A program made the translations under genes and the position numbers. From assembly GCA_018713605.1 (NCBI GenBank), contig DVOM01000027.1, positions 7,255 to 71,254 on the forward strand: a stretch of 64,000 nucleotides of DNA. Direction: 5' to 3'. Under the pieces are notes generated by a model that saw nothing but the letters and a program-made list of their open reading frames with translations, made no database searches and was not told the origin of the DNA. Below, in pieces: positions 1,891-30,445 of this stretch (its first letter is position 1; each line of letters starts with the position of its first letter). The stretch is from Candidatus Scatocola faecigallinarum (GTDB taxonomy: Bacteria > Pseudomonadota > Alphaproteobacteria > RF32 > CAG-239).

Positions 1891-2014
1891 CGCCTTTCTC
1901 CCCTGAATTAGTTCCTCTTGCAACCCCTCACAAAACCTCTGTCTGCCCTGTTCCCTCTTCTGCCATGCCCGGCTCGTTATTACCGCCCCACGGGCCTGTT
2001 TCTTCTTCCTTGTT

Positions 2015-2195: not shown

Positions 2196-2207
2196 TAATA
2201 TTCAGCC

Positions 2208-3107: not shown

Positions 3108-3395
3108 CGTCCCCCGCCTTTCACATAAAAATTTACAAAAAGGGGCGCCCGAATAGGTGTGGTGTGTGTGTATATTGTGTCTCGTTTTGAGCCGGACGCC
3201 CCTTCTTTAAGTAAGTCCGATTCACAAAAAAACGTACAAATTTCATAAGCCGGACTTATTAAATTCATAATATATTAGTAATTTAGTCGAGTCAAGGTAA
3301 AAAATTACAAGTTTATAGTATATATAGATTCACAATAAAATAGGAATATACCTTATTATATATTTTGAGTTACCAAAACAACGGGAATATCCTAT

Positions 3396-3749
3396 ATGAA
3401 TGATAATGACTTTGCCACAAATCTGGGAAACCGTATCCGCGAACTTAGAAAGAATAAGGGCGTAAGCCAGCTCGAACTGGCTTATGACATGGATATGTCC
3501 ATGAATACCATCTCGGGTATCGAACTCGGCAAAATCTCCCCGAAAATTGACACGCTCAAAAAAATCGCCCAGAAACTCGACATTGACATATCCGAACTTT
3601 TCGACTTCAGCGAACACGCCCCCAAAGACAAGGTCATCCGCAAAAAAGTCGAGGAAATTACCCGCAAACTGCTGCCGCAGGACAAGGAGTTTCTGGACCT
3701 CGTCTCCAGCAATATCGACATTCTCATAAAAATCCGCGAATTAAACTAA
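3396..3749 (+). CDS. XRE-family helix-turn-helix transcriptional regulator
   Basis: 117 aa. NLGNRIRELRKNKGVSQLELAYDMDMSMNTISGIELGK is a typical Cro/C1 HTH. Confidence 0.8.
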   Translation: MNDNDFATNLGNRIRELRKNKGVSQLELAYDMDMSMNTISGIELGKISPKIDTLKKIAQKLDIDISELFDFSEHAPKDKVIRKKVEEITRKLLPQDKEFLDLVSSNIDILIKIRELN

Positions 3750-3840
3750 GCAGCCCCGTCGCCTTGCACTTCTCTCCGCTTCTTTTACACACCCCGGGCT
3801 TGTTTTTTCTCCCGCCGTGTTCGTACTTTCTCTTCCGCCT

Positions 3841-4100
3841 GTCATTGCCGGTTCGCCTCTTCTTATTGTCATTCCCCGCTTTTTTTCTCTTTCGTCATTC
3901 CTCAGCTTTTTTTCTTTTTCGTCATTCCCCGGCTTTTTTTCTTTTTCGTCATTCCCCGGCTTGACCGGGGAATCTGTAAGGGAGATGTCCGGCTCAAGGC
4001 CGAACATGACAGAAAGAGAAAAGAGGCCGAACATGACAGAAAGAGAAAAAAGTTCGAGGATGACAAAGAAAATACAAGGCACGGCCTCACGATATGCACG
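3841..4100. repeat. Large imperfect palindrome built from 26-27 bp GTCAT units (5 forward, 3 inverted) plus a conserved flanking motif
   Basis: Forward units start at 3841, 3868, 3894, 3921 and 3948. The central hairpin CCCCGGCTTGACCGGGG is at 3954-3970. Inverted ATGAC cores are at 4006, 4033 and 4060 (27-bp period). The motif GGCACGGCCTCACGATATGCAC is at 4078-4100. Confidence 0.85.
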
Positions 4101-8893: not shown

Positions 8894-9484
8894 TTAGCAA
8901 GAACGTTCTTGTTCCTGACAAACTGTTCCTTGGACTTTCTGTTCCGGCATACCATCTTTCAGGCTGTTAACAAACCTAATGGTAAAAACATTTCTGGCTT
9001 CATCCATAACCAACATTTCGCCTGCAGGAATATCGCCTTCTTCCTCAACAAACATCTCCAACATGACCATTTTTGACAAGAACTTAAAGCGATAAGTACA
9101 TTTTCTTCCGGCCTGAAAAAACTTGGTTTTAGCCAATGCTTCGCAATATTGCCGAAAAGAAACATGTTCCTCTTTTAACCCCTTAAAATGTGAATAAACC
9201 ACCCGCAAAACCATACTTCCGAAATCCACCGCCTCACCATAATTTGTGTTTTGACGCAAATCATCCTGAATTTCTGTAACATACGTGCAATGCCCATAAA
9301 GCCATAGCAATCGATACAAAATCCATTCCTGCATTTTGGGTGAAACAGCCAATATCTCAGCAACAGTCATATCTTCAGGAGATTTTGGCATTTTTACATT
9401 CATCTCTCTGGCAATAACTTCAGCCAGTCTCAGTTTAAAGCGAAAATTATTTTCACCGATAAACTCTGCTAACTTTTTTTCCAT
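8894..9484 (-). CDS. Hypothetical protein (orphan, visibly lower GC than its neighbours)
   Basis: Start taken at MEKKLAEF (Met 28 of the 223-aa ORF), which removes the overlap with the upstream gene. I recognise no motif. Codon usage is AT-rich compared with ruvA and ruvC. Confidence 0.5.
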   Translation of the reverse strand: MEKKLAEFIGENNFRFKLRLAEVIAREMNVKMPKSPEDMTVAEILAVSPKMQEWILYRLLWLYGHCTYVTEIQDDLRQNTNYGEAVDFGSMVLRVVYSHFKGLKEEHVSFRQYCEALAKTKFFQAGRKCTYRFKFLSKMVMLEMFVEEEGDIPAGEMLVMDEARNVFTIRFVNSLKDGMPEQKVQGTVCQEQERSC

Positions 9485-15107: not shown

Positions 15108-15584
15108 ATGCGGAGAAAAAAGATGATAAAACTTCTGTGGGCTTTTATGATTATGGTTGCGCTGGCCATTCCCCTGCATGCCGAACTGACATACGAAGGG
15201 GCTTACAACCCGAACCAGAATCTGCAGGAATATTTCGACGAAGCCTATCCGAATTATGACAAGCCGATAATTTACGTCTTTTTCAACAACGATCCCTGCT
15301 TCCAGTGCCCGCAGACCATTGAACTGATAGAACAGGTCTACAACCGGAACTATCAGAACAAATACAGCCTGTTTCTGATTAATTACCAAAATGACGACGA
15401 ATATAACTTCATCGAAACCTACGACTTGAATCAGCCGTTGGAGGTTGTTCTGGTCGACGTCGCCGACGGACAGAGCATCGGCTACAAGAAACTGGAGAAT
15501 CTTCAAAACCAGATTTCCGATCCGGTCAGTTTTTCGGAAAACCTCCAATATCAGATAAACTCCTTTTTCAACGGGGAAGACTGA
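15108..15584 (+). CDS. Secreted thioredoxin-fold-like protein
   Basis: Signal peptide MIKLLWAFMIMVALAIPLHA. CFQC redox-type motif in FFNNDPCFQCPQTIELIEQVY. Confidence 0.5.
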   Translation: MRRKKMIKLLWAFMIMVALAIPLHAELTYEGAYNPNQNLQEYFDEAYPNYDKPIIYVFFNNDPCFQCPQTIELIEQVYNRNYQNKYSLFLINYQNDDEYNFIETYDLNQPLEVVLVDVADGQSIGYKKLENLQNQISDPVSFSENLQYQINSFFNGED

Positions 15585-16413
15585 TGTCCGCCGCTCTCCC
15601 GGCCGGAGGCTGTTTCCTGATAATGACGCAGAAATCCGTCATCTCGTTTGTAATCCGCATTTTTGCCAGCCGGCGCTTTGAAAAACAATCCTTCGCAAAA
15701 ATAACTTCGGCATTGTACTGCGCTTTCAGCCGGCTGAAAATATCCCTTCCGTAAGCCCGGACATGGTCATGTTGCCCATAGTATTTTTCCCGCTCTTCCG
15801 GTGACGTGATTGAATTGTCCTGAAAAGTTTTTTCCAACCCCATATAGACGGGGAAATTAAGCAGAAACAAGCCTCCCGGCTTCAAGACCCGCAGCAGCTC
15901 GGTCAAAAACTTGCTCTCGTCCATAATGTGTTCCATAACCTGATTGCTCAAAACGACATCAAACGTATTGTCGGCAAAAGACAAGTTCGTAACATCCTCT
16001 TTCCGGCAGCGGCAGAATCTGTAACGCTCGGGCGACAAATCCATCGGCACATAATCAACAAGCGGATAACGCCCTATCAAATCACAGATACACTTTTCCG
16101 GAGCCGTATGCAAAACACGTATCGGCTTACGGGTATTCAAAAAATATTTCTTATAAATAAAAAACAGGAACCGGTGCCGTTCCAGCGAACGGCAATAAGG
16201 ACACTTGACCGCGAACCGGGGCTTGCCGACCATATCCATAAACCGGCCGTAGCGATTGCAGACCGGACAAAAATAAACGCCTCCCGTCAGCGGACGAAAA
16301 TACTTTATTTTTATTCCGAATATCGTAACGACCCGATGATATTTTTCATTTTTTATCGAAAAAAAGAACCGCAGCAGCTTTCGCAACATCACACACTCCA
16401 CCCGGGCAGACAA
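15568..16413 (-). CDS. Class I SAM-dependent methyltransferase with N-terminal zinc ribbon
   Basis: 281 aa. CPVCNRYG...CPYCRS, then a Methyltransf_11-like core (FDVVLSNQVMEHI, LKPGGLFLL). The N-terminus carries the HRVVTIFGIKIKYF motif. Confidence 0.75.
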   Translation of the reverse strand: MSARVECVMLRKLLRFFFSIKNEKYHRVVTIFGIKIKYFRPLTGGVYFCPVCNRYGRFMDMVGKPRFAVKCPYCRSLERHRFLFFIYKKYFLNTRKPIRVLHTAPEKCICDLIGRYPLVDYVPMDLSPERYRFCRCRKEDVTNLSFADNTFDVVLSNQVMEHIMDESKFLTELLRVLKPGGLFLLNFPVYMGLEKTFQDNSITSPEEREKYYGQHDHVRAYGRDIFSRLKAQYNAEVIFAKDCFSKRRLAKMRITNEMTDFCVIIRKQPPAGRAADISLPR

Positions 16414-16470
16414 ACTTGAATCATGAAAATCAGCACATTGAAAACATATACTTTTTCTCTTAACTAAGCC

Positions 16471-18402
16471 TTAACGTCCGATGTTTTTCCGCCGCCCACG
16501 GCAAATCCGTAAAAAAATATTCCGCAGCCTTTGTTTCAGTTCCCAAATACGATAATAAATTTTCGGAGTTCGCGCCTTTCTTATAAAATTCAAATTATCG
16601 TTATCCTCACTGCGAAAAAGATTCCATAACGTATAAGGTTTAGCCATTTCAGAAGCGCCGACCGCCTCCAATCCGACCTCGCTGAAAGGAACGCTTCCCA
16701 AAAATTCTGCCCATTGCCTGTTTTCGGAATGCAGCAACATACCAAAATATCTCTTAAATATGTTGGAAGAATAAACGGAAATATTATTCTTGTGTTCAAA
16801 ACAACTCATTTCGCGGCAAAAATCCAAAATACCGCAAAGATATTCCTCATGTCCCCACTTCAAAAGCAAAGAATTGTCAATGTTTTCCAAAACCGGTTCA
16901 ATCCTGCCGCCCGGACATTCCCTGTATCCCAAAGTCTGACCTTGAGGACATCGGCAAAGAGCCTCGAGCCAAAGCATACAGCCGAGGGAAATCGTCATAT
17001 AGGTTATTTTCCGGGATTTCTCATAATCGGTATTTACGGAATTATAAAAATAAAAAGTTGTAATTCTCCGACCGGCGTCAAGTTCGGAAACAATACTTTC
17101 CAGCATATCCTGCGTTCTGCCGGAACCGCACAAATCAACAAACGCAAATTTGCGGTCAAAATCTATTTCCTGCCTCAAATACCTTTTTAGCAGTTTCCTG
17201 TTTTGCTCATGCGCGGCAATAACTTCCGCCTTCAAACCGTCGGAAGCAAGTGCTGCTTTCTCGTATATCTCGACTTGCTTAGCCGATTTATCGGCATTGC
17301 TTACGTCAAAATACTTCTTCAAAACATCAAAACCTATTCCCAGCCGCAAAGCCAGCCGCTCAAAACAAAAACTGCGCTTATATTCGCCAAACGTCATCCG
17401 AATAAATTCATCAATGTTCTCACAGCCCGGAATACGCAAAGACAGTCTGGAACCATAAAAATAATGCGTTCTCAGACTAAGTTTTTTGGCAGCAATAATA
17501 ACATCGGCAATTTTTTTCAACACAAAACCGTCTCTGGCTATAAAATACAAATCAGTTATCCCTTCACCTGACGAAATGTTTAACAGCCAGCTGACATAAG
17601 AATATAAGATTGCCCCGGAAAACGATACTCCGAAACCGTAAATGGAATCTTCGGAGGCGGAATCATTCAACAGCCGCGAACATCCAAAATATGCCTGAAA
17701 TTCAAGTGTATTGCCGCTTCGAAGCAACGTTTTCTCATAAGATTTCAAAACTTTTGGCGCAAAAAAATCTGCATTTATCCTCAACACCCTCGCATTATCG
17801 ACATCAGTCTTCAAATTATCTCCGCAATGCCGCCACTTTCTGTAATCCGCCCTATAAAAATCCTTTATATGCCGATACAGATCCCCGCGCTCTTTGCTCC
17901 GTTTCAACTCACCCGAAACAAAAATCGGAATATCGTTAAAAATATCGTCAAACTGCAACAAAATTTTACGTATCTGCTCTGCAGTCAAATACATATCCGA
18001 AACAAGAATAACCTGCGCTTTTTCCTTCAGCAGCTTCCGAACCTTTTCAATATTCTCATAAATCGGTACGGCATTACGATATTCCGTTTCCAGTTCAAGA
18101 TTTACCAGTTTTTCCGATAATGTTTCGGACAAACGAAAGTTATTGGCAATTAAACGATATATTTCCTCCAATGTTATTTCACTGTGTCCATGGCGAGATT
18201 TGTTAGCTTTCTTCAAAAACAACGCCGTATCAACCCTGATTGAAGCAAAATTCTGCCGAAAAAAAATATCTGTTTGACGAAAAGAAACATCATTACAAAT
18301 TTTATCCTGCATTATGGCAAAAATTCCATGTGCCGAAGCGGTCCGCCGCGTAATCAGCGTATCCCAGACGTCAAACGAATATAACCAGTCAGCCATCCGC
18401 AA
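16471..18402 (-). CDS. HAD-superfamily hydrolase-like protein (COG5610-type, capsule-locus associated)
   Basis: 643 aa. HAD motif I near the N-terminus (SFDVWDTLITR). Large C-terminal extension. Confidence 0.55.
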   Translation of the reverse strand: MRMADWLYSFDVWDTLITRRTASAHGIFAIMQDKICNDVSFRQTDIFFRQNFASIRVDTALFLKKANKSRHGHSEITLEEIYRLIANNFRLSETLSEKLVNLELETEYRNAVPIYENIEKVRKLLKEKAQVILVSDMYLTAEQIRKILLQFDDIFNDIPIFVSGELKRSKERGDLYRHIKDFYRADYRKWRHCGDNLKTDVDNARVLRINADFFAPKVLKSYEKTLLRSGNTLEFQAYFGCSRLLNDSASEDSIYGFGVSFSGAILYSYVSWLLNISSGEGITDLYFIARDGFVLKKIADVIIAAKKLSLRTHYFYGSRLSLRIPGCENIDEFIRMTFGEYKRSFCFERLALRLGIGFDVLKKYFDVSNADKSAKQVEIYEKAALASDGLKAEVIAAHEQNRKLLKRYLRQEIDFDRKFAFVDLCGSGRTQDMLESIVSELDAGRRITTFYFYNSVNTDYEKSRKITYMTISLGCMLWLEALCRCPQGQTLGYRECPGGRIEPVLENIDNSLLLKWGHEEYLCGILDFCREMSCFEHKNNISVYSSNIFKRYFGMLLHSENRQWAEFLGSVPFSEVGLEAVGASEMAKPYTLWNLFRSEDNDNLNFIRKARTPKIYYRIWELKQRLRNIFLRICRGRRKNIGR

Positions 18403-18417
18403 TCCTTCCCGTTTATC

Positions 18418-19332
18418 TCAGGCCTTGCCTTTTGTCCGAAACTTAAACCTGATGCCAAAAACCGAGACAACTCTGTGCTTTTCGCAGATTTTCACGCCAA
18501 ACAGTTTGCTCCGTGCTCTTACGGGCTTCACGTCTTTCTTTGAAGCAGAAGATGCTTTCCTGTCCGGGTAGTTGCGTCTCACGGCAATATCAAAAACCGA
18601 TACATTCTCTTCCGAATAATTCGCGGCCAAAACTTCCCTTGCCTTTGCCAACTTGCTTTTCGGCAATAAAGTAACCCAGGACATAAGAAGAACGTTAAAC
18701 AAATCGTCAAGACTTTTACGGGTATCGTGATTCGGAATAAAAGCGCCTATATTGGGCAAACCATACGCATATTCCGTTGTTCTCGGATAAAATTTCTCTG
18801 CCCGAACGGTATTGATAAGCACTCTCGGAGCCTGCGATCTGGTCTCAAAATAAAGTTGTATATTAATGTCATGAACAACAAACACGCAATCGACATTAAC
18901 CCAGGGCAAAATCAGAAGAAAATCTAAAACTTCTCCGGGAAGTCCGTGGGCGGCATCTAAAACAACCATATCAATCCCCGCCCCTATATCTGCCGCACAG
19001 TCTGCAATGGTTGAGTTTTTTTTCAAAGACCACCTTTTATGGAAACAATCCGCTTCTTCACACAGAAAGCCAACCTCCCGCCGCTTTTCAAGCGGAATGT
19101 TTTCGTTACGGTCACGATAATATTTCCCGCCGATATCCACGGAATAAAGTAAAGCTCCGCTCTCTTTTGTTGCTTCCAAAAGCAAAAGGGAACCGGCTCC
19201 CGAAGAAACGCCTATTTCTACAATTTTTTTCGGTTTCCTTTCCTGGCATAAATCATAAATAAATGCACACTCGCTTTTGGTCATTTCCGAGTAGGCTTTT
19301 ATTTTCTCATATACAGCCTCAAATCCGCCCAT
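18418..19332 (-). CDS. Class I SAM-dependent (O-)methyltransferase
   Basis: 304 aa. Gly-rich SAM loop IVEIGVSSGAGS and acidic DIG/LDAAH motifs. The C-terminus carries HRVVSVFGIRFKF. Confidence 0.7.
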   Translation of the reverse strand: MGGFEAVYEKIKAYSEMTKSECAFIYDLCQERKPKKIVEIGVSSGAGSLLLLEATKESGALLYSVDIGGKYYRDRNENIPLEKRREVGFLCEEADCFHKRWSLKKNSTIADCAADIGAGIDMVVLDAAHGLPGEVLDFLLILPWVNVDCVFVVHDINIQLYFETRSQAPRVLINTVRAEKFYPRTTEYAYGLPNIGAFIPNHDTRKSLDDLFNVLLMSWVTLLPKSKLAKAREVLAANYSEENVSVFDIAVRRNYPDRKASSASKKDVKPVRARSKLFGVKICEKHRVVSVFGIRFKFRTKGKA

Positions 19333-19335
19333 AGC

Positions 19336-20547
19336 CTAATCTCCCAATAATTCTTCAAGAACGGCTCCGTAGCTCTCCGCAAAATTCCGGTTTGAAAAAT
19401 ATTTTTCATAAACGCGCTTATTCTTGTTTCCCAACATTTTTATATCAGAACCAAGCAAAGCGGAACTGCCCGCTTCATAATCGTCGTTCTTAACCAAAAT
19501 GATATTATCGTCCCGGTTAAACTCCGGATTTCCCCCGACATCTGACAAAACGACGCATTTTGACTTGTTCATCATTTCCAGCGTTGTAAGATCAAATATC
19601 GAAATTCTGTGCAGCATAAGATAAACGTCTGTTATATTCTGCAAATATTGCATTTCCGCATAGGAACAGCCCTTCAGGTGTATATAGCTGAAATTATCAT
19701 ATAAACCGGACAACCGGTCCAGTTCTGTTTTGACTGCCGCTTCCAACGGCCCTTTGCCAACCATAATATAACGCACCTTTCCTGCCGTCTTTTTTAAGAA
19801 AGCTTCAAGGAACAAAGGATTCCGGTCAAGTCCTTTGGCCTTTGTAAGCTGACCTACCGACAAAAAAGTTACACAGCTATCATCCTGTGTAATGCCGGAA
19901 ACCGGCAACATGTTTCCCGTCGCATACAATGTATTATACAGAACACGGCCTTTTTTAAATTGGCCGGACCGAATAATCTTATAGCGGCTGCCGGCAAAAT
20001 AGTCATAAGCTCCCTCAGACGGAAAACACACGCACAAAGCATGAGCAAATGCAAGTTTTTCACTGGCCTGAATAATCTTTCGGGACACAAAAGTAAACTT
20101 CTCTCCAAAATTTATTTTTTCTTCAATTCTGGCTCCCTGAATATGAGAAACAAGAACATATTTCTTACCGGCCAAATACAAACCGAAAGCGCTGCCGTAA
20201 TCATGGGTTATATATGCCGTCTCCCGGTCATCTTTAGTTTTTAACCGCACAAATTCAACTGCACCGAACAAATCCCACAACTCGTTTTTGCGATCCGTCG
20301 AAAACCGGTTGTCCTCATAAAACGAATATTTGAGCGAAACGCCGTTAAGCTCAGAACCAAACAACACCCGGTTGGCAGACTGAACGGCTCCGCCGCCTCC
20401 CGCGCCGCCGTCGGGAAAAAAACGCCTGAAAGTTATAAAACGAACCGACCGGACTTTTTCAAAACTTTTTTTCCTGTTTCGCAAGACCAGCAGACGCAGA
20501 AAGTGCAAAAGATTTTTTAAGTCGGACATTGCTCTAATTCTCATCAA
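19336..20547 (-). CDS. GT-B fold glycosyltransferase (GT4-like)
   Basis: 403 aa (alternative start at 20529). C-terminal donor-binding region HRISIFDLTTLEMMNKSKCVVLSDVGGNPEF resembles the EX7E region of GT4 enzymes. Confidence 0.7.
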   Translation of the reverse strand: MMRIRAMSDLKNLLHFLRLLVLRNRKKSFEKVRSVRFITFRRFFPDGGAGGGGAVQSANRVLFGSELNGVSLKYSFYEDNRFSTDRKNELWDLFGAVEFVRLKTKDDRETAYITHDYGSAFGLYLAGKKYVLVSHIQGARIEEKINFGEKFTFVSRKIIQASEKLAFAHALCVCFPSEGAYDYFAGSRYKIIRSGQFKKGRVLYNTLYATGNMLPVSGITQDDSCVTFLSVGQLTKAKGLDRNPLFLEAFLKKTAGKVRYIMVGKGPLEAAVKTELDRLSGLYDNFSYIHLKGCSYAEMQYLQNITDVYLMLHRISIFDLTTLEMMNKSKCVVLSDVGGNPEFNRDDNIILVKNDDYEAGSSALLGSDIKMLGNKNKRVYEKYFSNRNFAESYGAVLEELLGD

Positions 20548-21634
20548 AATTTCCTTTTCCGTTTACCAGCCTCTGCAAAAATTCCGCTTCCTTGTCCAAG
20601 CGGTGCACACGAGATCTTCTTTTGGCTTCGGCCTCGGTTCTGTCATTAAAATAATGGGTTGCATATGTATCAAACTTATCCTGGCAAAAGCTGAATCCAT
20701 AAAAATCAACATTATTAAAATTTCCAAACTTTCTGAAAATTTCCCAAATCAACACCATTCCCGTCGTCGGAAAATCTACGCCGCTGGCTTTTCTCAGAGA
20801 CATATGACATGCCCAGTCAAAATTATAAATTTTTTGTCCCTCACAAAGCTGCCGGTATAAAATGTCAAGATGATTATGCGCAACCCGCCAGTGGTCATAG
20901 TCGGCTTCCCAGGCAACCAGCCTATAAGGTTCGGTTCTGTCCTCAACATCACTGCCGCCGCTACCGCGCACCCAAATATCGGTTTTGGAGCCATAATCCT
21001 TTTCAAAACCTTTCAGACGATAATTGTTGAATCTGATAACCAAATCATGCGCATCAATTTCAGCACCTTTTTTTCTGCCTATTTCCGAAGGTGCATTACC
21101 CACGACTGCTACCTTTTTTCCCTCCAGCAGATTTTTAAACAGATTTTCGGCCCTGCTTTTTTCCAAAGCCTCGTGAACTTTTGCCGCCATCATTACCCTT
21201 TCGTTGTATATTCCCCGATCAAACATATACTTGGAAACCGGCAAAAAACGTTCAAATTCATCAAGGCGGCCGTTCCGATATGCCAAAAACCTGTCAATCA
21301 TACGCTCGGCCTTTTCAATCTGGCCGCTTTCCAGCAAACAGGAAAACCAGATCAGCCAAAAATGGCAGAAGTAACTTTGCCAGGCAAAGCGCGAATGGCT
21401 TATAAAATCAAAATGTTTCAGCAAAAAGTCCGTACAGCCATATGTTTCCCACATTGCCGCCACCAAATCGGCATTATCCCGGTTAATACGACTTTTTAAA
21501 TCTTCGACCTGTTCTCTCAGATCTCTTAACGACGCTTTCACATTAAAAACTTTCAGCTTTAAGCCAAGCATACGATATATAACATGAAATCCGTCGTCGT
21601 CAGACTTTTCAAACACCCTAAAATTCTTTTTCAT
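20534..21634 (-). CDS. GT29-family (eukaryote-type) sialyltransferase-like glycosyltransferase with helical N-terminal domain
   Basis: All four sialylmotifs are recognisable: L (VAVVGNAPS...EIDAHDLVIRFNN), S (FPTTGMVLIWEI...VDFYGFSF), III (THYFND) and VS (HRLDKE, H-x4-E). Confidence 0.7.
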   Translation of the reverse strand: MKKNFRVFEKSDDDGFHVIYRMLGLKLKVFNVKASLRDLREQVEDLKSRINRDNADLVAAMWETYGCTDFLLKHFDFISHSRFAWQSYFCHFWLIWFSCLLESGQIEKAERMIDRFLAYRNGRLDEFERFLPVSKYMFDRGIYNERVMMAAKVHEALEKSRAENLFKNLLEGKKVAVVGNAPSEIGRKKGAEIDAHDLVIRFNNYRLKGFEKDYGSKTDIWVRGSGGSDVEDRTEPYRLVAWEADYDHWRVAHNHLDILYRQLCEGQKIYNFDWACHMSLRKASGVDFPTTGMVLIWEIFRKFGNFNNVDFYGFSFCQDKFDTYATHYFNDRTEAEAKRRSRVHRLDKEAEFLQRLVNGKGNFDEN

Positions 21635-21672
21635 TGTATCCCAAGCCCGCAATACCCGCTTTGTATAAATTT

Positions 21673-21824: not shown

Positions 21825-23627
21825 ATGGAGAAGACAATGCAGAACATTAATGAACTGGCCAGAATTGTAATGCCGGCTTCGGATTTTCTTGATTATCAGG
21901 AACTGTTCATCAACCGCGAAGAAGGCTCCTGCCGTCTTGACGGCATATTGAAGCAAGTAAATATCTATAAGTTCAATACCTGGATGAACATGTTTGCCGC
22001 CCAAAAGCATTATTTTTACTGCGATCTCGGCAACATTTACCTGCATTTGGACATTCAGGGAAAATACAGGCTGCAGGTTACCGGCAGCAACCGGAACTTT
22101 GCCTTTGAACGGCTGGACGACCTCCTGCTGGATACGGACTGCGAAAACAACGTCTGTCTGAAAATCGACAATGCCGAAAAATATGAAGGGCTTTTTTTCA
22201 CAATCATTGAAGACCAAAACCGCCCGATAACTTTTAAATCCGGCGCCTGGTGCACGGACAAGGCACCGCGCCGCCAAAACAAGCTGGCCGTCGTAACCTG
22301 CACCTTCAGGCGCGAAGACTACATTAACAAAAACATCGCCAAGTTTGAAAACTTCCTGCGCGACAATCCGCAGCTCAAAGACAAAATAAAGCTCTTTGTT
22401 TCCGACAACGGCAAAACCCTTCCCGCCGCGTTAAATTCGGAAAACGTCACAATTTACCCGAACATGAATGCCGGAGGCGCCGGCGGCTTTACCCGCGGCC
22501 TGATTGAAGTCATGAAACTCAATGCCGGTTACACCCGGGTACTGTTCATGGACGACGACGTCGAAATTTTTCCGGAATCTTTTTACCGTACACTGACTCT
22601 GTCAGACTACCTGAAAGAAGAATATAAGGACGCCTTCATCAACGGCGCCATGCTTGACCTGTACCGAAAATCCGATTTTTTTGAAAACCTGGCTCTGCAA
22701 AGCGGCTTATGGGTAGAGGCTTTTCACCGGGGGCAGGAACTGAAATATGATAACGTTTTGAAAATAAATCAAATCCCGGCAGAAATATTTAATGACGCCT
22801 CCCGCAAAGTTGACACCGCATGGTGGTTTCACTGCTTCGATATCTCTCTTGCACAAAAAAACGGTCTCCCGGCTCCCGTTTTTTTCAGAGGAGATGACGT
22901 GGAATGGAGCTGGCGGAATTTTGGCAGGCATCATATATCCATAAACGGGATTTGCGTCTGGCACGCTCCCTTTATTTGGCGCGTATCCAAACCGGCAGAC
23001 TATTACTATCTGCCCCGAAACATGTTTTTCATCAATGTTCTGTATACCGCCGATTTCAAAAAACATTTTAAGGATTACCTCATTCAGCGGTTAAAATATC
23101 TGACCGCAACTTATGATTACGCATCTCTTGATTTGCTAATCAAAGCCATGAAAGATATTCTGAACGGCAGCGCTGTTTTCCGTGAAAACCCCGAAAAACA
23201 GTTTGCCGAAGTCAATAAAATTGCCAAACAGACTATTTATGAAAATGCGACCGAAAACGAACTGTCCGAGGCAAAGAACCACAAAGTTCACGTAAAAAAG
23301 TGGCGAAAGCTCTTATATAAACTAACCGGCAAAGGCTTTCTCTGCCCCAAAAAGCTTCTCAAAAAGCGCGACATAACAACCGAATGGTATCCTCCTGTCG
23401 AAGACTTTACCCTTGCCAAAGAAGTAAAAGTCTGCAACCTGTTTACCGGCAAATTTACCGTCCGCAAATTCGACCGCAGAAAAATCCGTGGCTATAACAA
23501 AGAATTTTTTAAACTGCTCAGGCAAATCGATAAAAATTATGACAGGCTTTATGACGACTTCGTCCAGGCGCATAAGGAGTTTTCAACTTTGGCTTTCTGG
23601 GAAAAATACCTGGAACTGAAAAAATAG
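21825..23627 (+). CDS. GT2-family (GT-A fold) glycosyltransferase, GlfT2-like architecture
   Basis: 600 aa. N-terminal beta-rich domain, then LAVVTCTFRREDY and the FMDDDVEI (DxD) motif. Confidence 0.65.
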   Translation: MEKTMQNINELARIVMPASDFLDYQELFINREEGSCRLDGILKQVNIYKFNTWMNMFAAQKHYFYCDLGNIYLHLDIQGKYRLQVTGSNRNFAFERLDDLLLDTDCENNVCLKIDNAEKYEGLFFTIIEDQNRPITFKSGAWCTDKAPRRQNKLAVVTCTFRREDYINKNIAKFENFLRDNPQLKDKIKLFVSDNGKTLPAALNSENVTIYPNMNAGGAGGFTRGLIEVMKLNAGYTRVLFMDDDVEIFPESFYRTLTLSDYLKEEYKDAFINGAMLDLYRKSDFFENLALQSGLWVEAFHRGQELKYDNVLKINQIPAEIFNDASRKVDTAWWFHCFDISLAQKNGLPAPVFFRGDDVEWSWRNFGRHHISINGICVWHAPFIWRVSKPADYYYLPRNMFFINVLYTADFKKHFKDYLIQRLKYLTATYDYASLDLLIKAMKDILNGSAVFRENPEKQFAEVNKIAKQTIYENATENELSEAKNHKVHVKKWRKLLYKLTGKGFLCPKKLLKKRDITTEWYPPVEDFTLAKEVKVCNLFTGKFTVRKFDRRKIRGYNKEFFKLLRQIDKNYDRLYDDFVQAHKEFSTLAFWEKYLELKK

Positions 23628-23639
23628 GAACGACGGACT

Positions 23640-26060
23640 ATGCAAAAAAACATCCTCTGCCGGGTAAAAAGTCAGGACTGCTGCGGCTGTGGCGCCTGCG
23701 CAAACAAATGCCCTGTCAAAGCAATCAGCTTGAGGGAAAACGAGGAAGGTTTTCTCGCGCCAGCAATTGACGAAAACCTCTGCACCGACTGCGGTTTGTG
23801 CGCCAGGGCCTGCCCGGCATTGAATGTCAGATATGAAAATACGACAGAACCGGAATGTTATGCGGCCATGGCCGAAGACGAAATCCGCATGAAAAGCTCG
23901 TCCGGCGGCATTTTCAGCCTGCTTGCCGAACACATTATCGACAAAGGCGGTTATGTCTGCGGCGCCGCTTTCAACAAAGATTGGAGCGTCAGCCACATCA
24001 TTATCGACAACAAACAGGACCTGGCCAAACTGCGCGGTTCCAAATATGTCCAAAGCGACACCGAAAACTGCTACCGGGAAACGAAAAAGCTTCTCGATGC
24101 AGGTAAAGAGGTTTTATTCAGCGGCTGCCCCTGCCAGATTGCCGGCTTATATTCTTTCCTGGGAAAAAAATATGAAAAGCTGTTTACAGTTGACATTCTT
24201 TGCCACGGCACACCCTCCCCCGGAATTTGGAAGAAATATCTACGTGAAACTTTTCCGCATCAAAAAATTATCGGCATCAACTTTCGAAACAAGGAAAAAA
24301 TCGGCTGGTCCTGTTCTCACTGTACATTCTCTCTGAAAGACGGAAACGAAATCGTGTCTGATGACTATACCAAAATGTTTCACAACACCGCCCTGATGAG
24401 ACCGTCCTGTGAAAACTGCAAACACTCAAAACTTCCCAGACCCGCGGACATAACCCTCGGCGACTGGTGGGGAATAGATAAATATCAAAGCGACATCAAT
24501 GACAATCAAGGCTTGTCCTTCGTGTTGTTAAACAACGACAAAGGAAAAAAAATCTTCAATGCCCTGAACTTGCCCCTGAAACAGAAAATCAGCCTAAAAC
24601 CGGAATATAATAACGGCCATGTTCGCTTCGGGCTGAAACTTCATCCAAACCGAAACAAGTTTTTTACCCTGCAAAAAAAATATTCTTACCGACAAAGTAC
24701 GGACATCATACAAAAAGGCAAATATGACGTTTGTTTAATAACTACTTTCTTTGCTCAAAATTACGGCGCGATTTTAGTTGCCTACGCCGTTAATCGGCTT
24801 TTGGAAAAACTCGGCTTTTCCGTTTTAATGTTGCAAAAACCGGCCGATGTCTGGCCCGGATACCCACTCGGCAACACCATTCCGATGAACTTTGCCCGAA
24901 AACACTATAACATATCGGGAATTTATGCCGACGAAGAAGACATGATTCGTCTTAACGGCCGTTGCGACACCTTTGTCGTCGGATCAGACCAGATTTTCAA
25001 TCCCGGTCTGCATTTAAATTATTCTTTTCTCGACTTTGTTGAAAATCAGAAGAAAAAAATCGCTTTCGCAACGTCTTTCGGACACGACGAATATAATGAA
25101 AAAGAAACGGATATTATCAAAAGAAAATATTTGCTGAAACGTTTCAGTCACATTGCCCTGAGGGAAAAAACCGCCAATCTGTGCGAAAATATTTTTGCCA
25201 TAACGGCCGACGAAGTAATCGACCCGACCCTTATGTTATCTCCGGAAGATTACGACAAGGTAATCGGTGACACAAAATCGGACATTTCCTCACCCTACCT
25301 GTTGACCTACATGCTTGACATGAGCAAGGAAAAAGAAGAAGCCGTTCGCTACATTGCCGACAAATTTAGCTTGCAAATCATAAACATTCCAAACTTAGAA
25401 GAAAAGCATCGCAGACCCTGCGAAATGGACTATCTTGAAAACGTCACGCCCGAAATATTTTTGTATCTGTACAAACACGCCTCCTTTGTCATAACCGATT
25501 CATACCACGGAACCTGTTTTGCCGTAAAATTCAACAGGCAGTTTATTTCTTTCATCAACAATTTCCGCGGTTCTCTGCGTTACCGGATTTTCGACTGCCT
25601 TAAACTCAACAACCGGATTTTTTCAGACCCGCAACACATCTTCAGCTCGCCTGACGTTATGAAACCGATTGACTTTACCGAAGCAAACAACCTTTTAGAG
25701 AAATGGGGGGGGTATGCAATTAATTGGCTAAAAGATGCAATGTCTTCCCCTGTTTCAAATCCGATAAAGTACACCGACTTTGAAAACTATATGGACATCA
25801 AAATTAAAGAAAACGCGCTTTTAAACAAACAACTGAAAAGCGAAAAGGAAAAAATGGAAACTGAACTCAAACAGCTTCAGGAACAGACAATGCTTCTGTC
25901 AAATGCCTCCGCCGTCCGTTTTCGATATTACCGCTGCAAAATGCTATCCAAACTCCTTTGGGGCGCCAAACGGCGGCACTACCGGAAAAAAGCCGAAGCA
26001 TTACACCAAAAGCTTCGCAAAATCAGAAGAATAAAGAAACAACTGCGCAACATCCGCTGA
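23640..26060 (+). CDS. Fusion protein: 2x[4Fe-4S] ferredoxin + FrhB-like (coenzyme F420 hydrogenase/dehydrogenase beta) domain + polysaccharide pyruvyl transferase domain
   Basis: 806 aa. CCGCGACANKCP and CTDCGLCARACP cluster motifs, an FrhB-like middle region, and a C-terminal PS_pyruv_trans-like region (VVGSDQIFNP...TDSYHGTCFA). Coiled-coil basic tail. Confidence 0.65.
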   Translation: MQKNILCRVKSQDCCGCGACANKCPVKAISLRENEEGFLAPAIDENLCTDCGLCARACPALNVRYENTTEPECYAAMAEDEIRMKSSSGGIFSLLAEHIIDKGGYVCGAAFNKDWSVSHIIIDNKQDLAKLRGSKYVQSDTENCYRETKKLLDAGKEVLFSGCPCQIAGLYSFLGKKYEKLFTVDILCHGTPSPGIWKKYLRETFPHQKIIGINFRNKEKIGWSCSHCTFSLKDGNEIVSDDYTKMFHNTALMRPSCENCKHSKLPRPADITLGDWWGIDKYQSDINDNQGLSFVLLNNDKGKKIFNALNLPLKQKISLKPEYNNGHVRFGLKLHPNRNKFFTLQKKYSYRQSTDIIQKGKYDVCLITTFFAQNYGAILVAYAVNRLLEKLGFSVLMLQKPADVWPGYPLGNTIPMNFARKHYNISGIYADEEDMIRLNGRCDTFVVGSDQIFNPGLHLNYSFLDFVENQKKKIAFATSFGHDEYNEKETDIIKRKYLLKRFSHIALREKTANLCENIFAITADEVIDPTLMLSPEDYDKVIGDTKSDISSPYLLTYMLDMSKEKEEAVRYIADKFSLQIINIPNLEEKHRRPCEMDYLENVTPEIFLYLYKHASFVITDSYHGTCFAVKFNRQFISFINNFRGSLRYRIFDCLKLNNRIFSDPQHIFSSPDVMKPIDFTEANNLLEKWGGYAINWLKDAMSSPVSNPIKYTDFENYMDIKIKENALLNKQLKSEKEKMETELKQLQEQTMLLSNASAVRFRYYRCKMLSKLLWGAKRRHYRKKAEALHQKLRKIRRIKKQLRNIR

Positions 26061-26073
26061 CATTATAGAACAA

Positions 26074-27045
26074 ATGGACAACAAAATGAAACTCATCGAA
26101 AAAATCTTTTCCGTAAAGAACAGAAAAAACCACAAAATCGTACATCTTCTGTTTTTCCGCATGAAATTCCGCCAGCAGGTTTCCAATCAGGAACTGCTGA
26201 ACAAAATCAACGCCATTCTGTGCAACGAAGAAAAAATCATCGGCAAGCTTGTCGAAACGTCCAAACCCAAAAAGGGAAAAGCCTTTTTGCCTTTTCTGTC
26301 GCTTCATCTGGTAGACAAATGTAACAACAACTGCGAAAGCTGCTCACACTTCTGCACTTTGGCCGACAACTTTATCCTCAATCCGTCCGACTATGAAAAG
26401 GATTTGACCATCCTGGCACACAAGTTCAACGTCGGCGAAATAGACCTGATGGGAGGCGAACCCCTTCTTCACCCGCAAATTGTCAAAATTTTCGACATTA
26501 CTCGCCGAATTCTGCCCCAAACTTTCATCTGCCTGCATACAAACGGCATTCTCCTGACCAAAATGCCCGACGAATTCTGGGAAGCCTGCCAAAAAAACAA
26601 AATTGCCTTCAAAATTACCAAATATCCTGTCATGAAAAACTTTTCCGAAGTTGTCGATTTATGTCTCCGCAACGAAATCAGAATTGAAACGCTGATTAAC
26701 GGCAACGAATTTCTGCATTGGATGGATCGCAGCGGCAACGGACAGATTGAAGAAAATTTTCACGCTTGCAAGTCCAAATTCGGCTGTTGCTACATTCTCA
26801 GGAACTCAAAACTCTATACCTGTCCGACAGCCTGTTATATGGATTACTACAACCGCTATTTCAACACGGAACTCCCGGTCGAAACCGGCATCGACATTAT
26901 TTATTCCTCTCCCGAAGAAATTTTGAATTATCTGAAAACACCGCTTTCCTGCTGTCGCTACTGCCGAAACGTAAACAAGCTGAAACGAAGACCATGGAAA
27001 CGTTCGCAAAGAAAAATTGACGAATGGGAGGATGCGGAAGCATAA
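26074..27045 (+). CDS. Radical SAM enzyme with C-terminal Cys-rich (SPASM/twitch-like) region
   Basis: 323 aa. CNNNCESC (Cx3Cx2C), a GGEPLLHP SAM-binding motif, and C-terminal CKSKFGCC...CPTAC...CCRYC. Confidence 0.75.
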   Translation: MDNKMKLIEKIFSVKNRKNHKIVHLLFFRMKFRQQVSNQELLNKINAILCNEEKIIGKLVETSKPKKGKAFLPFLSLHLVDKCNNNCESCSHFCTLADNFILNPSDYEKDLTILAHKFNVGEIDLMGGEPLLHPQIVKIFDITRRILPQTFICLHTNGILLTKMPDEFWEACQKNKIAFKITKYPVMKNFSEVVDLCLRNEIRIETLINGNEFLHWMDRSGNGQIEENFHACKSKFGCCYILRNSKLYTCPTACYMDYYNRYFNTELPVETGIDIIYSSPEEILNYLKTPLSCCRYCRNVNKLKRRPWKRSQRKIDEWEDAEA

Positions 27046-27812
27046 TGACCACCGGCCTCATTTTCGACATTAAGGAATTTGCCATCAACGACGGACCGGG
27101 CATAAGGCTGACCGTCTTCATGAAAGGCTGCCCGCTGCGTTGCGCCTGGTGTCACAATCCGGAAGGCATTTCGCCGCAGCCGCAGCTCAACCGGAAAACC
27201 GGCTGCATGGTCGGAAAGGAATACACGGTCGAAGAACTGGCCCGCCGCATATGCAAATTCAGGGACGTTTTTGACCTTTCCGGCGGCGGTGTAACCTTTT
27301 CCGGCGGCGAACCGACCCGCCAGCCTGAATTTGTCGAAGCCTGCGCCCTGCGTTTGAACGGTATTCACAAAACACTGGACACCTCCGGTTTTTGCCCATC
27401 TGCAACTTTTCGCCGGCTGCTCGGCGTCTTCGATTTGGTTTATTACGACCTCAAACTGGCCGACACCGCCGCACATCAGCGCTTTACCGGCCGGAGCAAC
27501 CTTCAGATTCTGGAAAATCTGCATATTCTGGACGAAAGCGGAGTTCCTTACCATATCAGAATCCCTCTGATTCCCGAGATTACCGATACCGAAAAAAATC
27601 TGTCCGGACTTTTAGATATCCTTGCCAGCCTCCGCAACAAACCGCTGCGCGTCGACCCGCTGCCCTACAACATCCTTGCCGGCGGCAAATACGATTCGTA
27701 CGGGATGGCTTATCCGCTTCAAAACGCATCAGCCGAAAACAATCAGGACAACATTGTCCGTTTTAAAGCCGAACTGCGCAAACGAAATATAAACATTATG
27801 GGAGAACAATAA
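27045..27812 (+). CDS. Glycyl-radical enzyme activating protein (short, PflA-like, no ferredoxin insert)
   Basis: Start at MTTGLIFDIKEFAINDGPGIRLTVFMKGCPLRCAWCHNPE. GGVTFSGGEP motif. The ATG overlaps the preceding stop (TAATG). Confidence 0.85.
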   Translation: MTTGLIFDIKEFAINDGPGIRLTVFMKGCPLRCAWCHNPEGISPQPQLNRKTGCMVGKEYTVEELARRICKFRDVFDLSGGGVTFSGGEPTRQPEFVEACALRLNGIHKTLDTSGFCPSATFRRLLGVFDLVYYDLKLADTAAHQRFTGRSNLQILENLHILDESGVPYHIRIPLIPEITDTEKNLSGLLDILASLRNKPLRVDPLPYNILAGGKYDSYGMAYPLQNASAENNQDNIVRFKAELRKRNINIMGEQ

Positions 27813-27813
27813 G

Positions 27814-29901
27814 ATGCTTACCGAACGCCTGCAGAAAATGCGCGACTTTACCCAACAGAGGAAATACAAACAGTTCCGAACCGATTTTAACGAAAACGGC
27901 ACCAAACTGCTGCGCAAACTGAACTGGGACTTTACCCAGCGCAGCGCCTGGCTGCTTAAGGAAATGTGCCGGGCTGAAGACCCAATCGTTTTTCCCGGCG
28001 AAAAAATCGGTTTCATCCGTACCAAAAACAGGCTTCCCGTTTATTGTGACCCCAAGGCCGTGCGCAAATATGTCGGCAAAAACAAACATCTTTTCGCCGA
28101 ACCGTTTCACAACATCTGCCCCGACTACGCCATTCTTCTCAACGAAGGGCTGGAAGAAAAGCGTCGGCAGGCCGAAACCCGCCTGTCCGGAGCCGGAAAA
28201 AGGGAAAAAATATTTTTAAACGGCGTCATCACGACCATCGACGCGGTTCTCAACCTTGCGCAAAGATACAAAGTCGCCGCCGAAGCGGCCGGCAATCGGA
28301 CCGTCGCCGCGCTTTTCGACCGCGTACCTCGCTTCCCGGCCGCAGATTTCCACGAAGCGCTGCAGTCTGTCCGCTTCATTTCCTCAATTTTCAACATGGC
28401 CGACAACTACCAGTTCGGATTCGGCCGAATGGACCAATACCTCTATCCTTTTTATGAAAAAGACCTGAAAACCGGCCGGCTGACTCGCGAAACCGCCGCG
28501 GAACTCCTTGCCGAATTTTTCATTTCTCTGAACAAGGACACCGATTTGTACCGCGGCGTTCAGCAGGGCGACAACGGCCAGAGCCTGATGCTCGGCGGCT
28601 GCAAACCCGAAGACGGCAGCTCCGCCGTTAACGATTTGACCTACCTGATTATGGAAGTGTCCAAAGAACTGAAACTCATCGACCCGAAAATTAATCTGCG
28701 CATCGACAGCCATACGCCTGACGACCTGCTCGAACTCGGCTGTGAACTGACCAAATGCGGCCTTGGTTTTCCGCAGTATTCCAACGATGAGGTCGTCATT
28801 CCGGCGCTGGTCAAAAAAGGTTACGCCCTCAAAGACGCCCGCAACTATACCGTTGCCGCCTGCTGGGAATTTATCATTCCCGGCAAAGGTATCGAAATTG
28901 TTAATCAGGGCGCCGTTTCAATGCCTTACGCCGTCGATGACGCTTTTGAAAAGGCCATGGCCGCCCGCGGTTCGTTCCGCCCGAAAAAATTCCTCTCGTT
29001 AATTCAAAAAAGCATGGAAAAACAAATCAAAAACATCTTGCGTAAACGCGACATCCGCACTTTGCCCTCGCCTTTCGCTTCAATTTTCTTTCACGGCAGC
29101 ATTGAAAACCGGCGCGACGCTTCGGAATGTGTTCCGTACCGCAACATCGGCATTCACGGTGCCGGCTCCGCCAATGCCGCCGACGCCTTAGCCGCAATCC
29201 GCCTGACTTATGAGGAAGAAGGAACAAACGGCCTGAAAAAACTGCAGGAAGCCAAACGCAGAAATTTTGAAGGCTGTGAAGAACTTCGGCACAGACTGCA
29301 TGACGAGATGCCCAAAGTCGGCAACGCGGACGCCGCGGTTGACAGCGAGCTTCGCTTCCTGTTCGACTGCTTTGCCGACGCGGCCGACAAATTTTCCGAC
29401 GACAAACGAAAAATCCGCCCCGGCAGCGGCTCTGCCATGTATTACATCTGGCTGGTCAACAACAATTCTCCCTGGGCTTTCGAGCCAAAAGTCAAAGCCA
29501 CGGCCGACGGACGCCTTAACGGCGAAGCCTTTTCCACCAGCCTGGCACCGTCTCAGGGTATAAAGGTCGACGGCGTTCTCAGCGTGCTCAAGTCCTATTC
29601 CGTCATTGACTATTCGCGGATTATGAACGGCGGCCCGATAACCATTGAACTTTCGCCGTCCGTTTTCAAATCGGACGACGGCATCAAAAAACTGGCCGGC
29701 CTGATAAAATATTTCGTCAAACTCGGCGACCAGCAGCTGCAATTGAATGTCCTTGACGCTTCGGTGCTTGAAGACGCCATCGCCCACCCTGAAAAACACC
29801 GCAACCTGATTGTCCGCGTCTGGGGCTGGAGCGGCTATTTTACCGAACTTGCGCCGGAATATCAGCAGCATGTCCTGAATCGCCACAAATATAACATTTG
29901 A
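27814..29901 (+). CDS. Glycyl radical enzyme (PFL2/eliminase-like), compact 695-aa form
   Basis: C-terminal glycine loop LIVRVWGWSGYF. Cys loop TVAACWEFIIPG (Cys-x-Glu). PFL-like barrel-length protein. Confidence 0.8.
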   Translation: MLTERLQKMRDFTQQRKYKQFRTDFNENGTKLLRKLNWDFTQRSAWLLKEMCRAEDPIVFPGEKIGFIRTKNRLPVYCDPKAVRKYVGKNKHLFAEPFHNICPDYAILLNEGLEEKRRQAETRLSGAGKREKIFLNGVITTIDAVLNLAQRYKVAAEAAGNRTVAALFDRVPRFPAADFHEALQSVRFISSIFNMADNYQFGFGRMDQYLYPFYEKDLKTGRLTRETAAELLAEFFISLNKDTDLYRGVQQGDNGQSLMLGGCKPEDGSSAVNDLTYLIMEVSKELKLIDPKINLRIDSHTPDDLLELGCELTKCGLGFPQYSNDEVVIPALVKKGYALKDARNYTVAACWEFIIPGKGIEIVNQGAVSMPYAVDDAFEKAMAARGSFRPKKFLSLIQKSMEKQIKNILRKRDIRTLPSPFASIFFHGSIENRRDASECVPYRNIGIHGAGSANAADALAAIRLTYEEEGTNGLKKLQEAKRRNFEGCEELRHRLHDEMPKVGNADAAVDSELRFLFDCFADAADKFSDDKRKIRPGSGSAMYYIWLVNNNSPWAFEPKVKATADGRLNGEAFSTSLAPSQGIKVDGVLSVLKSYSVIDYSRIMNGGPITIELSPSVFKSDDGIKKLAGLIKYFVKLGDQQLQLNVLDASVLEDAIAHPEKHRNLIVRVWGWSGYFTELAPEYQQHVLNRHKYNI

Positions 29902-29964: not shown

Positions 29965-30040
29965 GCCGACTTAGCTCAGTTGGTAGAGCTACTGATTTGT
30001 AATCAGTGGGTCGGGGGTTCAAGTCCCTCAGTCGGCACCA
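29965..30040 (+). tRNA. tRNA-Thr (anticodon UGU)
   Basis: 76 nt cloverleaf folded by hand. Acceptor GCCGACT/AGTCGGC, anticodon arm ACTGA-TTTGTAA-TCAGT, T arm GGGGG-TTCAAGT-CCCTC, encoded CCA. Confidence 0.9.
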
Positions 30041-30445
30041 TAAAAAAATCTCCTTATACGGAGGTTTTTTTTTATGGTATAAATTTTTGGGACTTGAACC
30101 CAGGCGGGCGCGAACCGATAGAAAACACCGCTGCTCCGGTGTTTTCGTTGTGAGCGGTGATGGTTTGTCGCCGAGCAAACAAGCCTATGCGAAGTGCGCG
30201 AGGCATACAAACCGAACTCCCCAAGTCCCTCAGTCGGCACCATAAAAAAACCTCCTTATACGGAGGTTTTTTTTATGGTATAAATTTTTGGGACTTGAAC
30301 CTAGGCGGGCGCGAACCGATAGAAAACACCGCTGCTCCGATGTTTTCGTTGCGAGCGGTGATGGTTTGTCGCCGAGCAAACAAGCCTATGCGAAGTGCGC
30401 AAGGCATACAAACCGAACTCCCCAAGTCCCTCAAATCGGCTCTTC
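30021..30445 (+). repeat. Tandem 202/201-bp direct repeats, each starting with the last 20 nt of tRNA-Thr (2 full units plus a degenerate third start)
   Basis: AAGTCCCTCAGTCGGCACCA at 30021 and 30223. A degenerate copy AAGTCCCTCAAATCGGC is at 30424. By manual alignment the units differ at about six positions. Confidence 0.9.
30042..30073 (+). terminator. Intrinsic terminator after tRNA-Thr (repeated at about 30244-30274)
   Basis: AAATCTCC-TTATAC-GGAGGTTT followed by a T-run. The second copy has a CCTCC/GGAGG stem. Confidence 0.65.

Follow-up and report, generated by a model that had tools for sequence, protein, structure and literature searches.

Glycyl radical enzymes (GREs) have been characterised in catabolism and in nucleotide reduction; a review of June 2026 places none of them in glycan biosynthesis and none on furanoses, and records that whole GRE clades remain unannotated. 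According to the same review all of the C–O, C–N and C–S eliminases, together with the new isomerases, keep a Cys-x-Glu (CXE) motif whose Glu hydrogen-bonds or deprotonates a substrate hydroxyl. The CXE 1,2-eliminases, namely CutC, the glycerol and propanediol dehydratases (GD and PD), HypD, IslA and HpsG, have in common a PFL-like barrel, an RVxG loop and the Cys-x-Glu loop. YbiW and PflD are CXE enzymes as well; they cleave a C–O bond in anhydrohexitol phosphates (ring opening of 1,5-anhydrohexitol-6-phosphate) and are the precedent for the opening of a sugar ring. Here we describe an activating enzyme (AE, activase) and a compact GRE encoded in a 64,000-nt stretch of the alphaproteobacterium Candidatus Scatocola faecigallinarum (contig DVOM01000027.1, positions 7,255 to 71,254; this whole stretch is called the window, and coordinates refer to it). 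The name of its aspartyl-tRNA synthetase (AspRS) cluster likewise points to a gut alphaproteobacterium that is uncultured. They are the last two of five co-directional genes in a locus of glycan-assembly genes, whereas the CXE eliminases belong to bacterial microcompartment (BMC) or small-metabolite operons. We regard the enzyme as a functional variant new to the GRE superfamily. With confidence a little short of even, we favour the reading that the AE-GRE pair is a tailoring module in the pathway to a surface glycan that contains furanoses, where it would cleave C–O bonds of galacto- or arabino-furanose units by radical chemistry.

The GRE gene (27814..29901, plus strand) encodes 695 aa with matches to Pfam PF02901 (PFL-like, 285 bits) and PF01228 (Gly_radical, 75 bits). 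Its AlphaFold2 (AF2) model (pLDDT 91.4) has the PFL-like ten-stranded barrel, for which Foldseek gives TM-scores of 0.81–0.86 to CutC, PD, GD and PflD at 20–24% identity. The Cys loop AACWEF (aa 348–353; 28855..28872) contains Glu352 and Cys350, the latter aligned with the catalytic Cys of CutC, PD, PflD and YbiW, and the glycyl radical loop RVWGWSGYF (aa 668–676; 29815..29841) contains Gly671. C350, W351 and E352 are invariant across the family described below, and so is the RVWGWSGYF loop. The CXE eliminases are the best matches both by sequence (E 1e-51 to 1e-68) and by structure (TM 0.77–0.86), but the window GRE is only 20–24% identical to them, as to every solved GRE, and is about 100–150 aa shorter. 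E. coli YbiW and PflD come somewhat nearer (26–28% identity, TM 0.82–0.84), yet these are proteins of 765–810 aa from catabolic operons with phosphotransferase system (PTS) and aldolase genes. The scores lie below every NCBIfam equivalog cut-off (CutC, HypD, HpsG, HpfG, IAD, HPAD, PFL, PflD), for instance 234 against 1050 for CutC, 243 against 1100 for HypD, 226 bits against 1109 for PRK09983 (YbiW/PflD) and 78 bits against 994 for the PFL model TIGR01255; the best score, to the subfamily model TIGR01774, is 311 against 678. The Cys-Cys motif of PFL is absent. Judged by its sequence the enzyme therefore appears to be a true member of the superfamily, carrying every feature that can be read from sequence, which stands outside each characterised clade and about equidistant from all CXE eliminases and isomerases. 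The segment HNICPDY (28108..28128) holds an invariant Asn100, whose counterparts in the E. coli enzymes are His156 (PflD) and His165 (YbiW), and by homology this would be the leaving-group position taken by His164 in GD, Asp216 in CutC and Gln193 in IslA. The segment lining the active site that is aromatic in CutC and PD is here polar and nearly invariant (VQQGDNGQ).

The activase (255 aa; 27045..27812, plus strand) is PflA-like and shows the CX3CX2C cluster motif as CPLRCAWC at aa 29–36 (27129–27152). It is 34% identical to E. coli PflC. It matches TIGR02494 with 215 bits (cut-off 174) in two stretches that skip approximately positions 45–99, the ferredoxin insert, and TIGR02493 (PFLA) with 181 bits in a single stretch. 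Like PflA it consists of the radical SAM (S-adenosylmethionine) domain only and thus lacks the auxiliary ferredoxin-like domain that is usual for CXE-class activases. The activase adjoins the GRE in about 95% of the family loci, where the AE has a median length of 253 aa and likewise no ferredoxin domain. The 2026 review lists only the activases of PFL and of ribonucleotide reductase (RNR) without this domain. Together the two genes of the window encode an oxygen-sensitive radical system that is complete and intact. A preliminary reading of the letters alone, which we call the first-pass annotation, had pointed out that a short GRE with a PflA-type activase is unusual, and the review, which treats such an activase as exceptional outside PFL and RNR, agrees with it. 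That the GRE lies outside the characterised clades, as its reading required, is borne out by the equivalog scores, the identities of 20–28% and the Foldseek comparison, and all four motifs that it had named (CNNNCESC in the adjacent radical SAM gene, CPLRCAWC, AACWEF and RVWGWSGYF) were found in the translations.

The enzyme belongs to a large, deeply branching and uncharacterised family of 680–750-aa GREs. Protein and contig searches gave at least 570 loci from species-representative genomes, to which metagenomes added at least 550. There are two branches, which share 175 positions conserved at 90% or more in both and differ by only 12 branch-specific switches. In the window branch (53–99% identity) the AE-GRE pair is found in galactofuranose (Galf)-type glycan loci, next to genes for a GlfT2-like glycosyltransferase (GT), UDP-galactopyranose mutase (GLF, also UGM), DUF4422 and an epimerase/SDR, and sometimes for a fusion of an FrhB-like flavoprotein with a pyruvyltransferase (FrhB/PyrT) and a radical SAM enzyme (rSAM). 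Carriers of this arrangement include Melainabacteria, Muribaculaceae, Alpha- and other Proteobacteria, Lachnospiraceae, an Akkermansia-like metagenome-assembled genome (MAG) and a Desulfovibrio MAG, and the Planctomycetes share it though their GREs are just 48–50% identical to that of the window. The synteny of AE-GRE with Galf genes extends over at least seven phyla; in Lachnospiraceae the gene order is AE-GT-GRE, with the GT between activase and GRE. Parablautia muri (Lachnospiraceae) and 'Bacterium C-53' are cultured carriers. In a context census of 174 loci, counted without de-replication, the markers were a GlfT2-like gene, GLF, DUF4422, FrhB/PyrT or rSAM near the GRE; at least one of them was present in 21 of the 22 loci in the 52–90% identity band, and a GlfT2-like gene or GLF in 2 of the 106 loci below 52%. 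The sister branch (45–51% identity) is found in Anaerolineae, Verrucomicrobia, Planctomycetes and Acidobacteria, in loci for the utilisation of arabinose or galactose, where the neighbours are a CUT2 ABC transporter, LacI, GH51-like and GH127 arabinofuranosidases, AraA/AraB/AraD or GalK, a zinc-dependent alcohol dehydrogenase (Zn-ADH) and an SDR.

The first of the five genes, at 21825..23627 (plus strand, 600 aa), had been described simply as a GT2. It matches the galactofuranosyltransferases 9dtp, 9oa3 and 4fix of the PDB (E 1e-19 to 3e-18, aa 48–595), its Pfam matches to Glft2_N and GlfT2_domain3 are just under the cut-offs, and a DDD lies at aa 243–245. Together with this homology it shows the three-domain GlfT2 architecture of an N-terminal domain, a GT-A domain with DxD and a C-terminal helical domain, and the sequence therefore supports the more precise name of GlfT2-like polymerising galactofuranosyltransferase. 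Homologues of 44–78% identity adjoin the AE-GRE pair in other phyla. A reciprocal search starting from the GT found a 63%-identical homologue with rSAM-AE-GRE downstream, and homologues of 45–47% identity, including one of Treponema primitia ZAS-2, in glycan loci without a GRE. The AE-GRE pair is accordingly accessory to galactofuranose-glycan loci and not universal in them, and because a GRE is present in only a subset, among the close but not the distant relatives of the GT, a tailoring-type role is suggested.

How such a module could work is proposed here by analogy with the reviewed CXE GREs. The activase would install a radical on Gly671, and the thiyl radical of Cys350 would take a hydrogen from a hydroxyl-bearing carbon of a galacto- or arabino-configured furanose, while Glu352 would deprotonate the hydroxyl at that carbon. 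The resulting ketyl radical would expel the substituent bound through a β C–O bond, either as a 1,2-elimination or as a ring-opening isomerisation (compare GD, PD, YbiW and PflD), to yield a deoxy-keto or deoxy-aldehydo sugar. In the window operon the candidate substrates are UDP-Galf or the lipid-linked galactofuranan that the adjacent GlfT2-like polymerase would make in the cytoplasm, and the most GD/PD-like target would be the exocyclic 5,6-diol of Galf. α-L-Arabinofuranose and β-D-Galf have the same ring stereochemistry, and this would explain the two genomic contexts of the family. Tailoring at the 5,6-diol of Galf is known from Klebsiella K12, which contains 5,6-pyruvyl-Galf. More tentatively still, we suggest that this is the first GRE family in polysaccharide biosynthesis, that it deoxygenates or adds a keto group to Galf units (UDP-Galf or the nascent lipid-linked galactofuranan), and that Anaerolineae, bacteria of the Planctomycetes–Verrucomicrobia–Chlamydiae (PVC) group and Acidobacteria use the same chemistry to catabolise sugars derived from arabino- or galacto-furanose. 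Other chemistries that were considered are C5–C6 cleavage of Galf to arabinofuranose, anomeric 1,2-elimination and 2-deoxy-lactone formation. If the proposal is right, bacterial glycobiology would gain a new class of reaction, carried out by a GRE module conserved in the Galf-glycan loci of anaerobes from the gut and the environment. Unusual deoxy or keto furanoses would then be expected on commensal surfaces, where they could be antigens or be used by phages as receptors. In the sister branch, the link with arabinofuranosidases and corrinoid methyltransferases gives a hint of an anaerobic sugar-utilisation step not recognised so far. The small GRE and its minimal activase may also be easier to reconstitute, and the cultured carriers make the question directly testable.

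Several observations weigh against this proposal. The active site of a GRE is as a rule buried and admits small molecules, so that a polymer or a nucleotide sugar as substrate would be unprecedented, and the comparison of the two branches brought out no extra conserved basic (nucleotide-binding) residues specific to the biosynthetic one. GLF, GalE and DUF4422 genes are all missing from the 64-kb window. Because the window has no GLF, and GLF is absent nearby in about half of the window-branch loci, UDP-Galf is a presumptive donor of the GT, suggested by homology. Finally, the general-acid His, which in GD, PD, YbiW and PflD gives a proton to the departing hydroxyl, aligns with the invariant Asn100, and this speaks against simple diol dehydration. 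The first-pass annotation had taken the Cys-x-Glu signature as that of an eliminase or dehydratase; the CXE is invariant, but with Asn at the position of the His the enzyme is not a plain diol dehydratase. The group that leaves may instead be activated, for example as an anion, or the proton may come from elsewhere, for instance from the invariant His448.

A first alternative is that the substrate of the GRE is a small precursor, a sugar or polyol in free or phosphorylated form and identical in both branches, whose product is later activated and incorporated or used as a substituent; the enzyme would then provide a building block and would not tailor a glycan or nucleotide sugar. The nearly identical active site of the two branches, the CUT2 monosaccharide ABC importer upstream in the catabolic one, the preference of GRE active sites for small substrates and the NTP-transferase or CTP-transferase genes of some biosynthetic loci are all in its favour, but minimal units such as GT-AE-GRE (L098) and SDR-GLF-DUF4422-GT-AE-GRE (L086) contain no kinase or nucleotidyltransferase that would activate the product, and we regard this explanation as unlikely. 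Much less probable is that the GRE removes oxygen reductively from a furanosyl nucleotide or sugar, as RNR does, with an external reductant such as formate, thioredoxin or the FrhB-like flavoprotein and with a deoxy-furanose as the direct product. Class III RNR is indeed a GRE acting on ribofuranose with an activase that likewise has no ferredoxin domain, and the locus is rich in furanose functions (GlfT2-like, and a CriT/CrpP-like ribofuranosyl transferase described below); the fold and sequence of the window GRE are, however, PFL-like with all best PDB matches among the CXE eliminases, no second pair of active-site Cys is evident, and FrhB is optional. A replacement of UDP-galactopyranose mutase by the GRE was ruled out, since GLF co-occurs with it in about half of the loci.

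The first-pass annotation had considered that the GRE might process a pyruvyl ketal, and in the version weighed here the substrate would be a pyruvyl ketal or lactyl ether made by the FrhB/pyruvyltransferase. PyrT and GRE are adjacent in the window and in six further loci (L002, L003, L006, L089, L092 and L094), and pyruvate is a substrate of PFL chemistry. The AE-GRE pair nevertheless persists without any PyrT in the conspecific L098 and in L001, L007, L012, L086, L091, L178 and L182, the catabolic branch has no PyrT at all, and the active site has CXE in place of the Cys-Cys motif of PFL. The optional nature of FrhB/PyrT, and the retention of the GRE where PyrT was lost, thus make processing of a pyruvyl ketal very improbable. 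The conserved partner is instead the GlfT2-like GT with UGM/DUF4422. Accidental adjacency, that is a catabolic GRE for a small metabolite (for example a diol dehydratase) inserted beside a tRNA-Thr next to an unrelated glycan island, might be read from the flanks of AE-GRE, where the tRNA-Thr, a step in composition and a duplication of att type are found, and from the GC content at third codon positions (GC3), which is host-like in AE-GRE and not in the glycan genes. It is largely refuted by the census, since the synteny with Galf genes recurs in at least seven phyla, even with a GT between AE and GRE; the junctions are tight (a 1-nt overlap and a 1-nt gap), BMC, aldehyde dehydrogenase and transporter genes are absent, and the scores are far under the GD, PD, CutC and HypD cut-offs, so that we hold it to be extremely improbable. 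With the neighbourhood comparison that the first-pass annotation had called for, its view that the link to glycan genes is more than an accident of insertion is upheld. The view that GREs act on small non-sugar metabolites only is outdated by YbiW and PflD; a search of a literature library for polysaccharide, Galf, arabinose, capsule, O-antigen and UGM found no paper linking GREs with glycan synthesis, in line with its remark that it knew of no GRE assigned to polysaccharide or nucleotide-sugar modification. Overall its observation is confirmed, and of its interpretation the uncharacterised GRE, the conserved glycan link and the mosaic operon survive while the pyruvyl partner does not.

The two genes between the GT and the activase are independent, optional tailoring genes. 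The fusion protein (23640..26060, plus strand, 806 aa) has Pfam matches to two Fer4 domains (2x[4Fe-4S] ferredoxin), FrhB_FdhB_N/C and PS_pyruv_trans (102 bits). The rSAM (26074..27045, plus strand, 323 aa; Pfam Radical_SAM) contains CNNNCESC at aa 83–90 (26320–26343) and eight C-terminal Cys, and C232, C250, C294 and C297 are invariant. It matches SpeY (PDB 7wzv) with E 2.7e-17, and its model (pLDDT 89.9) has SpeY as best Foldseek match (TM 0.62–0.69) followed by BtrN (TM 0.48–0.61). A radical SAM core, a C-terminal auxiliary-cluster domain and the homology to SpeY are the features of a twitch-type dehydrogenase, which makes the enzyme a probable anaerobic dehydrogenase of a sugar hydroxyl. 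The SpeY/BtrN twitch dehydrogenases resemble the proposed GRE chemistry in that they modify sugar hydroxyls by anaerobic radical reactions during biosynthesis, and radical SAM sugar-tailoring enzymes of the AprD4/DesII type belong here as well; all of these consume SAM stoichiometrically in antibiotic pathways, whereas in the present case a catalytic protein radical would serve in a surface-polysaccharide locus. L092 and L093 have identical GREs, with the rSAM present in the first and absent from the second, and in L094 it stands at a different place in the cassette. A role of the rSAM as a second activase was ruled out, since it is SpeY/BtrN-like, optional, and part of a wider family found also in glycan loci without a GRE. 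This is a general glycan-locus family: a 37%-identical homologue is encoded in such a locus (L184/L185, 8001–15311) together with another FrhB/PyrT fusion, a DegT aminotransferase and ACP/KAS genes. In the Galf-type locus of T. primitia ZAS-2 without GRE (L177, 11778–21785) PS_pyruv_trans is fused to TPP_enzyme_N in a 972-aa protein, and after it come at least four paralogues in tandem, about 670–680 aa long and carrying a Citrate_ly_lig domain.

The five genes occupy 21825–29901 with intergenic gaps of 12, 13, −1 and 1 nt, as the first-pass annotation had read them, and the rSAM/AE junction is TAATG, with the ATG of the activase inside the overlap at 27045. At this point overall GC rises from 0.43–0.45 to 0.53. 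GC3 is 0.53–0.56 in the first three genes, 0.61 in AE and 0.64 in GRE, the last two being on par with the housekeeping genes of the window (0.63–0.65). The composition step reported earlier at 27045 is therefore real, and the recombinant operon deduced from it is corroborated by the GC3 step together with gene replacements in conspecific contigs, with the refinement that it is the upstream genes that were exchanged, AE-GRE forming the stable anchor of host-like composition. The same cassette is seen in conspecific contigs and so is not an assembly artefact. Among them AE and GRE are 99% identical and the upstream genes are variable. L098 keeps GT-AE-GRE with a GT allele of 74.5% identity and without PyrT and rSAM, and a 45-aa FrhB remnant (9021–9155) marks the site of the FrhB/PyrT and rSAM deletion. 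L095 carries a chimeric gene (1473–3914) with an FrhB half of 68.5% and a PyrT half of 99.5% identity, and both sites are within-species recombination breakpoints. A Rfam scan of 13–36 kb of the window returned tRNAs and nothing else, and promoter and terminator scans gave no signal exceeding shuffled controls; the best promoter-like site (27017–27046) covers the AE start codon and was set aside as chance.

Divergent to the operon lies a strain-variable set of glycan genes on the minus strand (15568..21652; Pfam: methyltransferase, CrpP/CriT-like, methyltransferase, GT1 and GT29-like), with GC3 of 0.42–0.46, which in the conspecific L082 and L084 is replaced by GT8, GT2/GT1 and methyltransferase genes. 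Its 643-aa open reading frame at 16471–18402 (minus strand) has no Pfam family and aligns with residues 383–907 of the Haemophilus influenzae type b capsule polymerase Bcs3 (E 5e-47), the region of the CrpP phosphatase and the CriT ribose-5-phosphate transferase. This match predicts ribofuranose derived from phosphoribosyl pyrophosphate (PRPP) in the glycan, and a furanose-rich product of the locus would follow from it. GT29 is a mainly eukaryotic family of sialyltransferases. The gene at 20534–21652 (minus strand) is a bacterial match to it (PF00777, E 4e-20, in two stretches), and no sialic-acid synthesis genes were seen near it.

Further observations concern the sister branch and the edges of the locus. 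In Anaerolineae (L015, L016, L018, L033, L041, L043, L075 and L078; approximately 1–18 kb) the operon consists of a CUT2 ABC transporter, three MtaA/URO-D-like methyltransferases, a corrinoid protein, AE, GRE, AraA, an M24-like protein, Zn-ADH, an FGGY kinase and AraD, an arrangement suggestive of an anaerobic route, so far unexplained, for a (methylated?) sugar of arabinose or galactose type. In PVC bacteria (L019, L024, L032, L036, L066 and L071) the GRE directly adjoins genes for GH51-like or GH127 arabinofuranosidases and for a CUT2 transporter, and araABD genes are missing from the vicinity. The Desulfovibrio MAG (L091, 4174–7398) has a second rSAM (358 aa) and a 625-aa GT with GC of 0.30–0.34 between its GlfT2-like and AE-GRE genes (GC 0.53–0.57), a mosaic like that of the window. 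In the conspecific L081 five extra genes stand between the GRE and the ankyrin/MprF genes. The edge of the locus in the window is formed by tRNA-Thr(TGT) (29965..30040, plus strand), the last 21 nt of which, with a following hairpin and T-run (30020–30072), are repeated at 30222–30274 (98%); 30066–30232 recurs at 30267–30433, and together these repeats amount to a tandem duplication, about 201 bp long, that starts inside the tRNA 3′ end and resembles an att scar.

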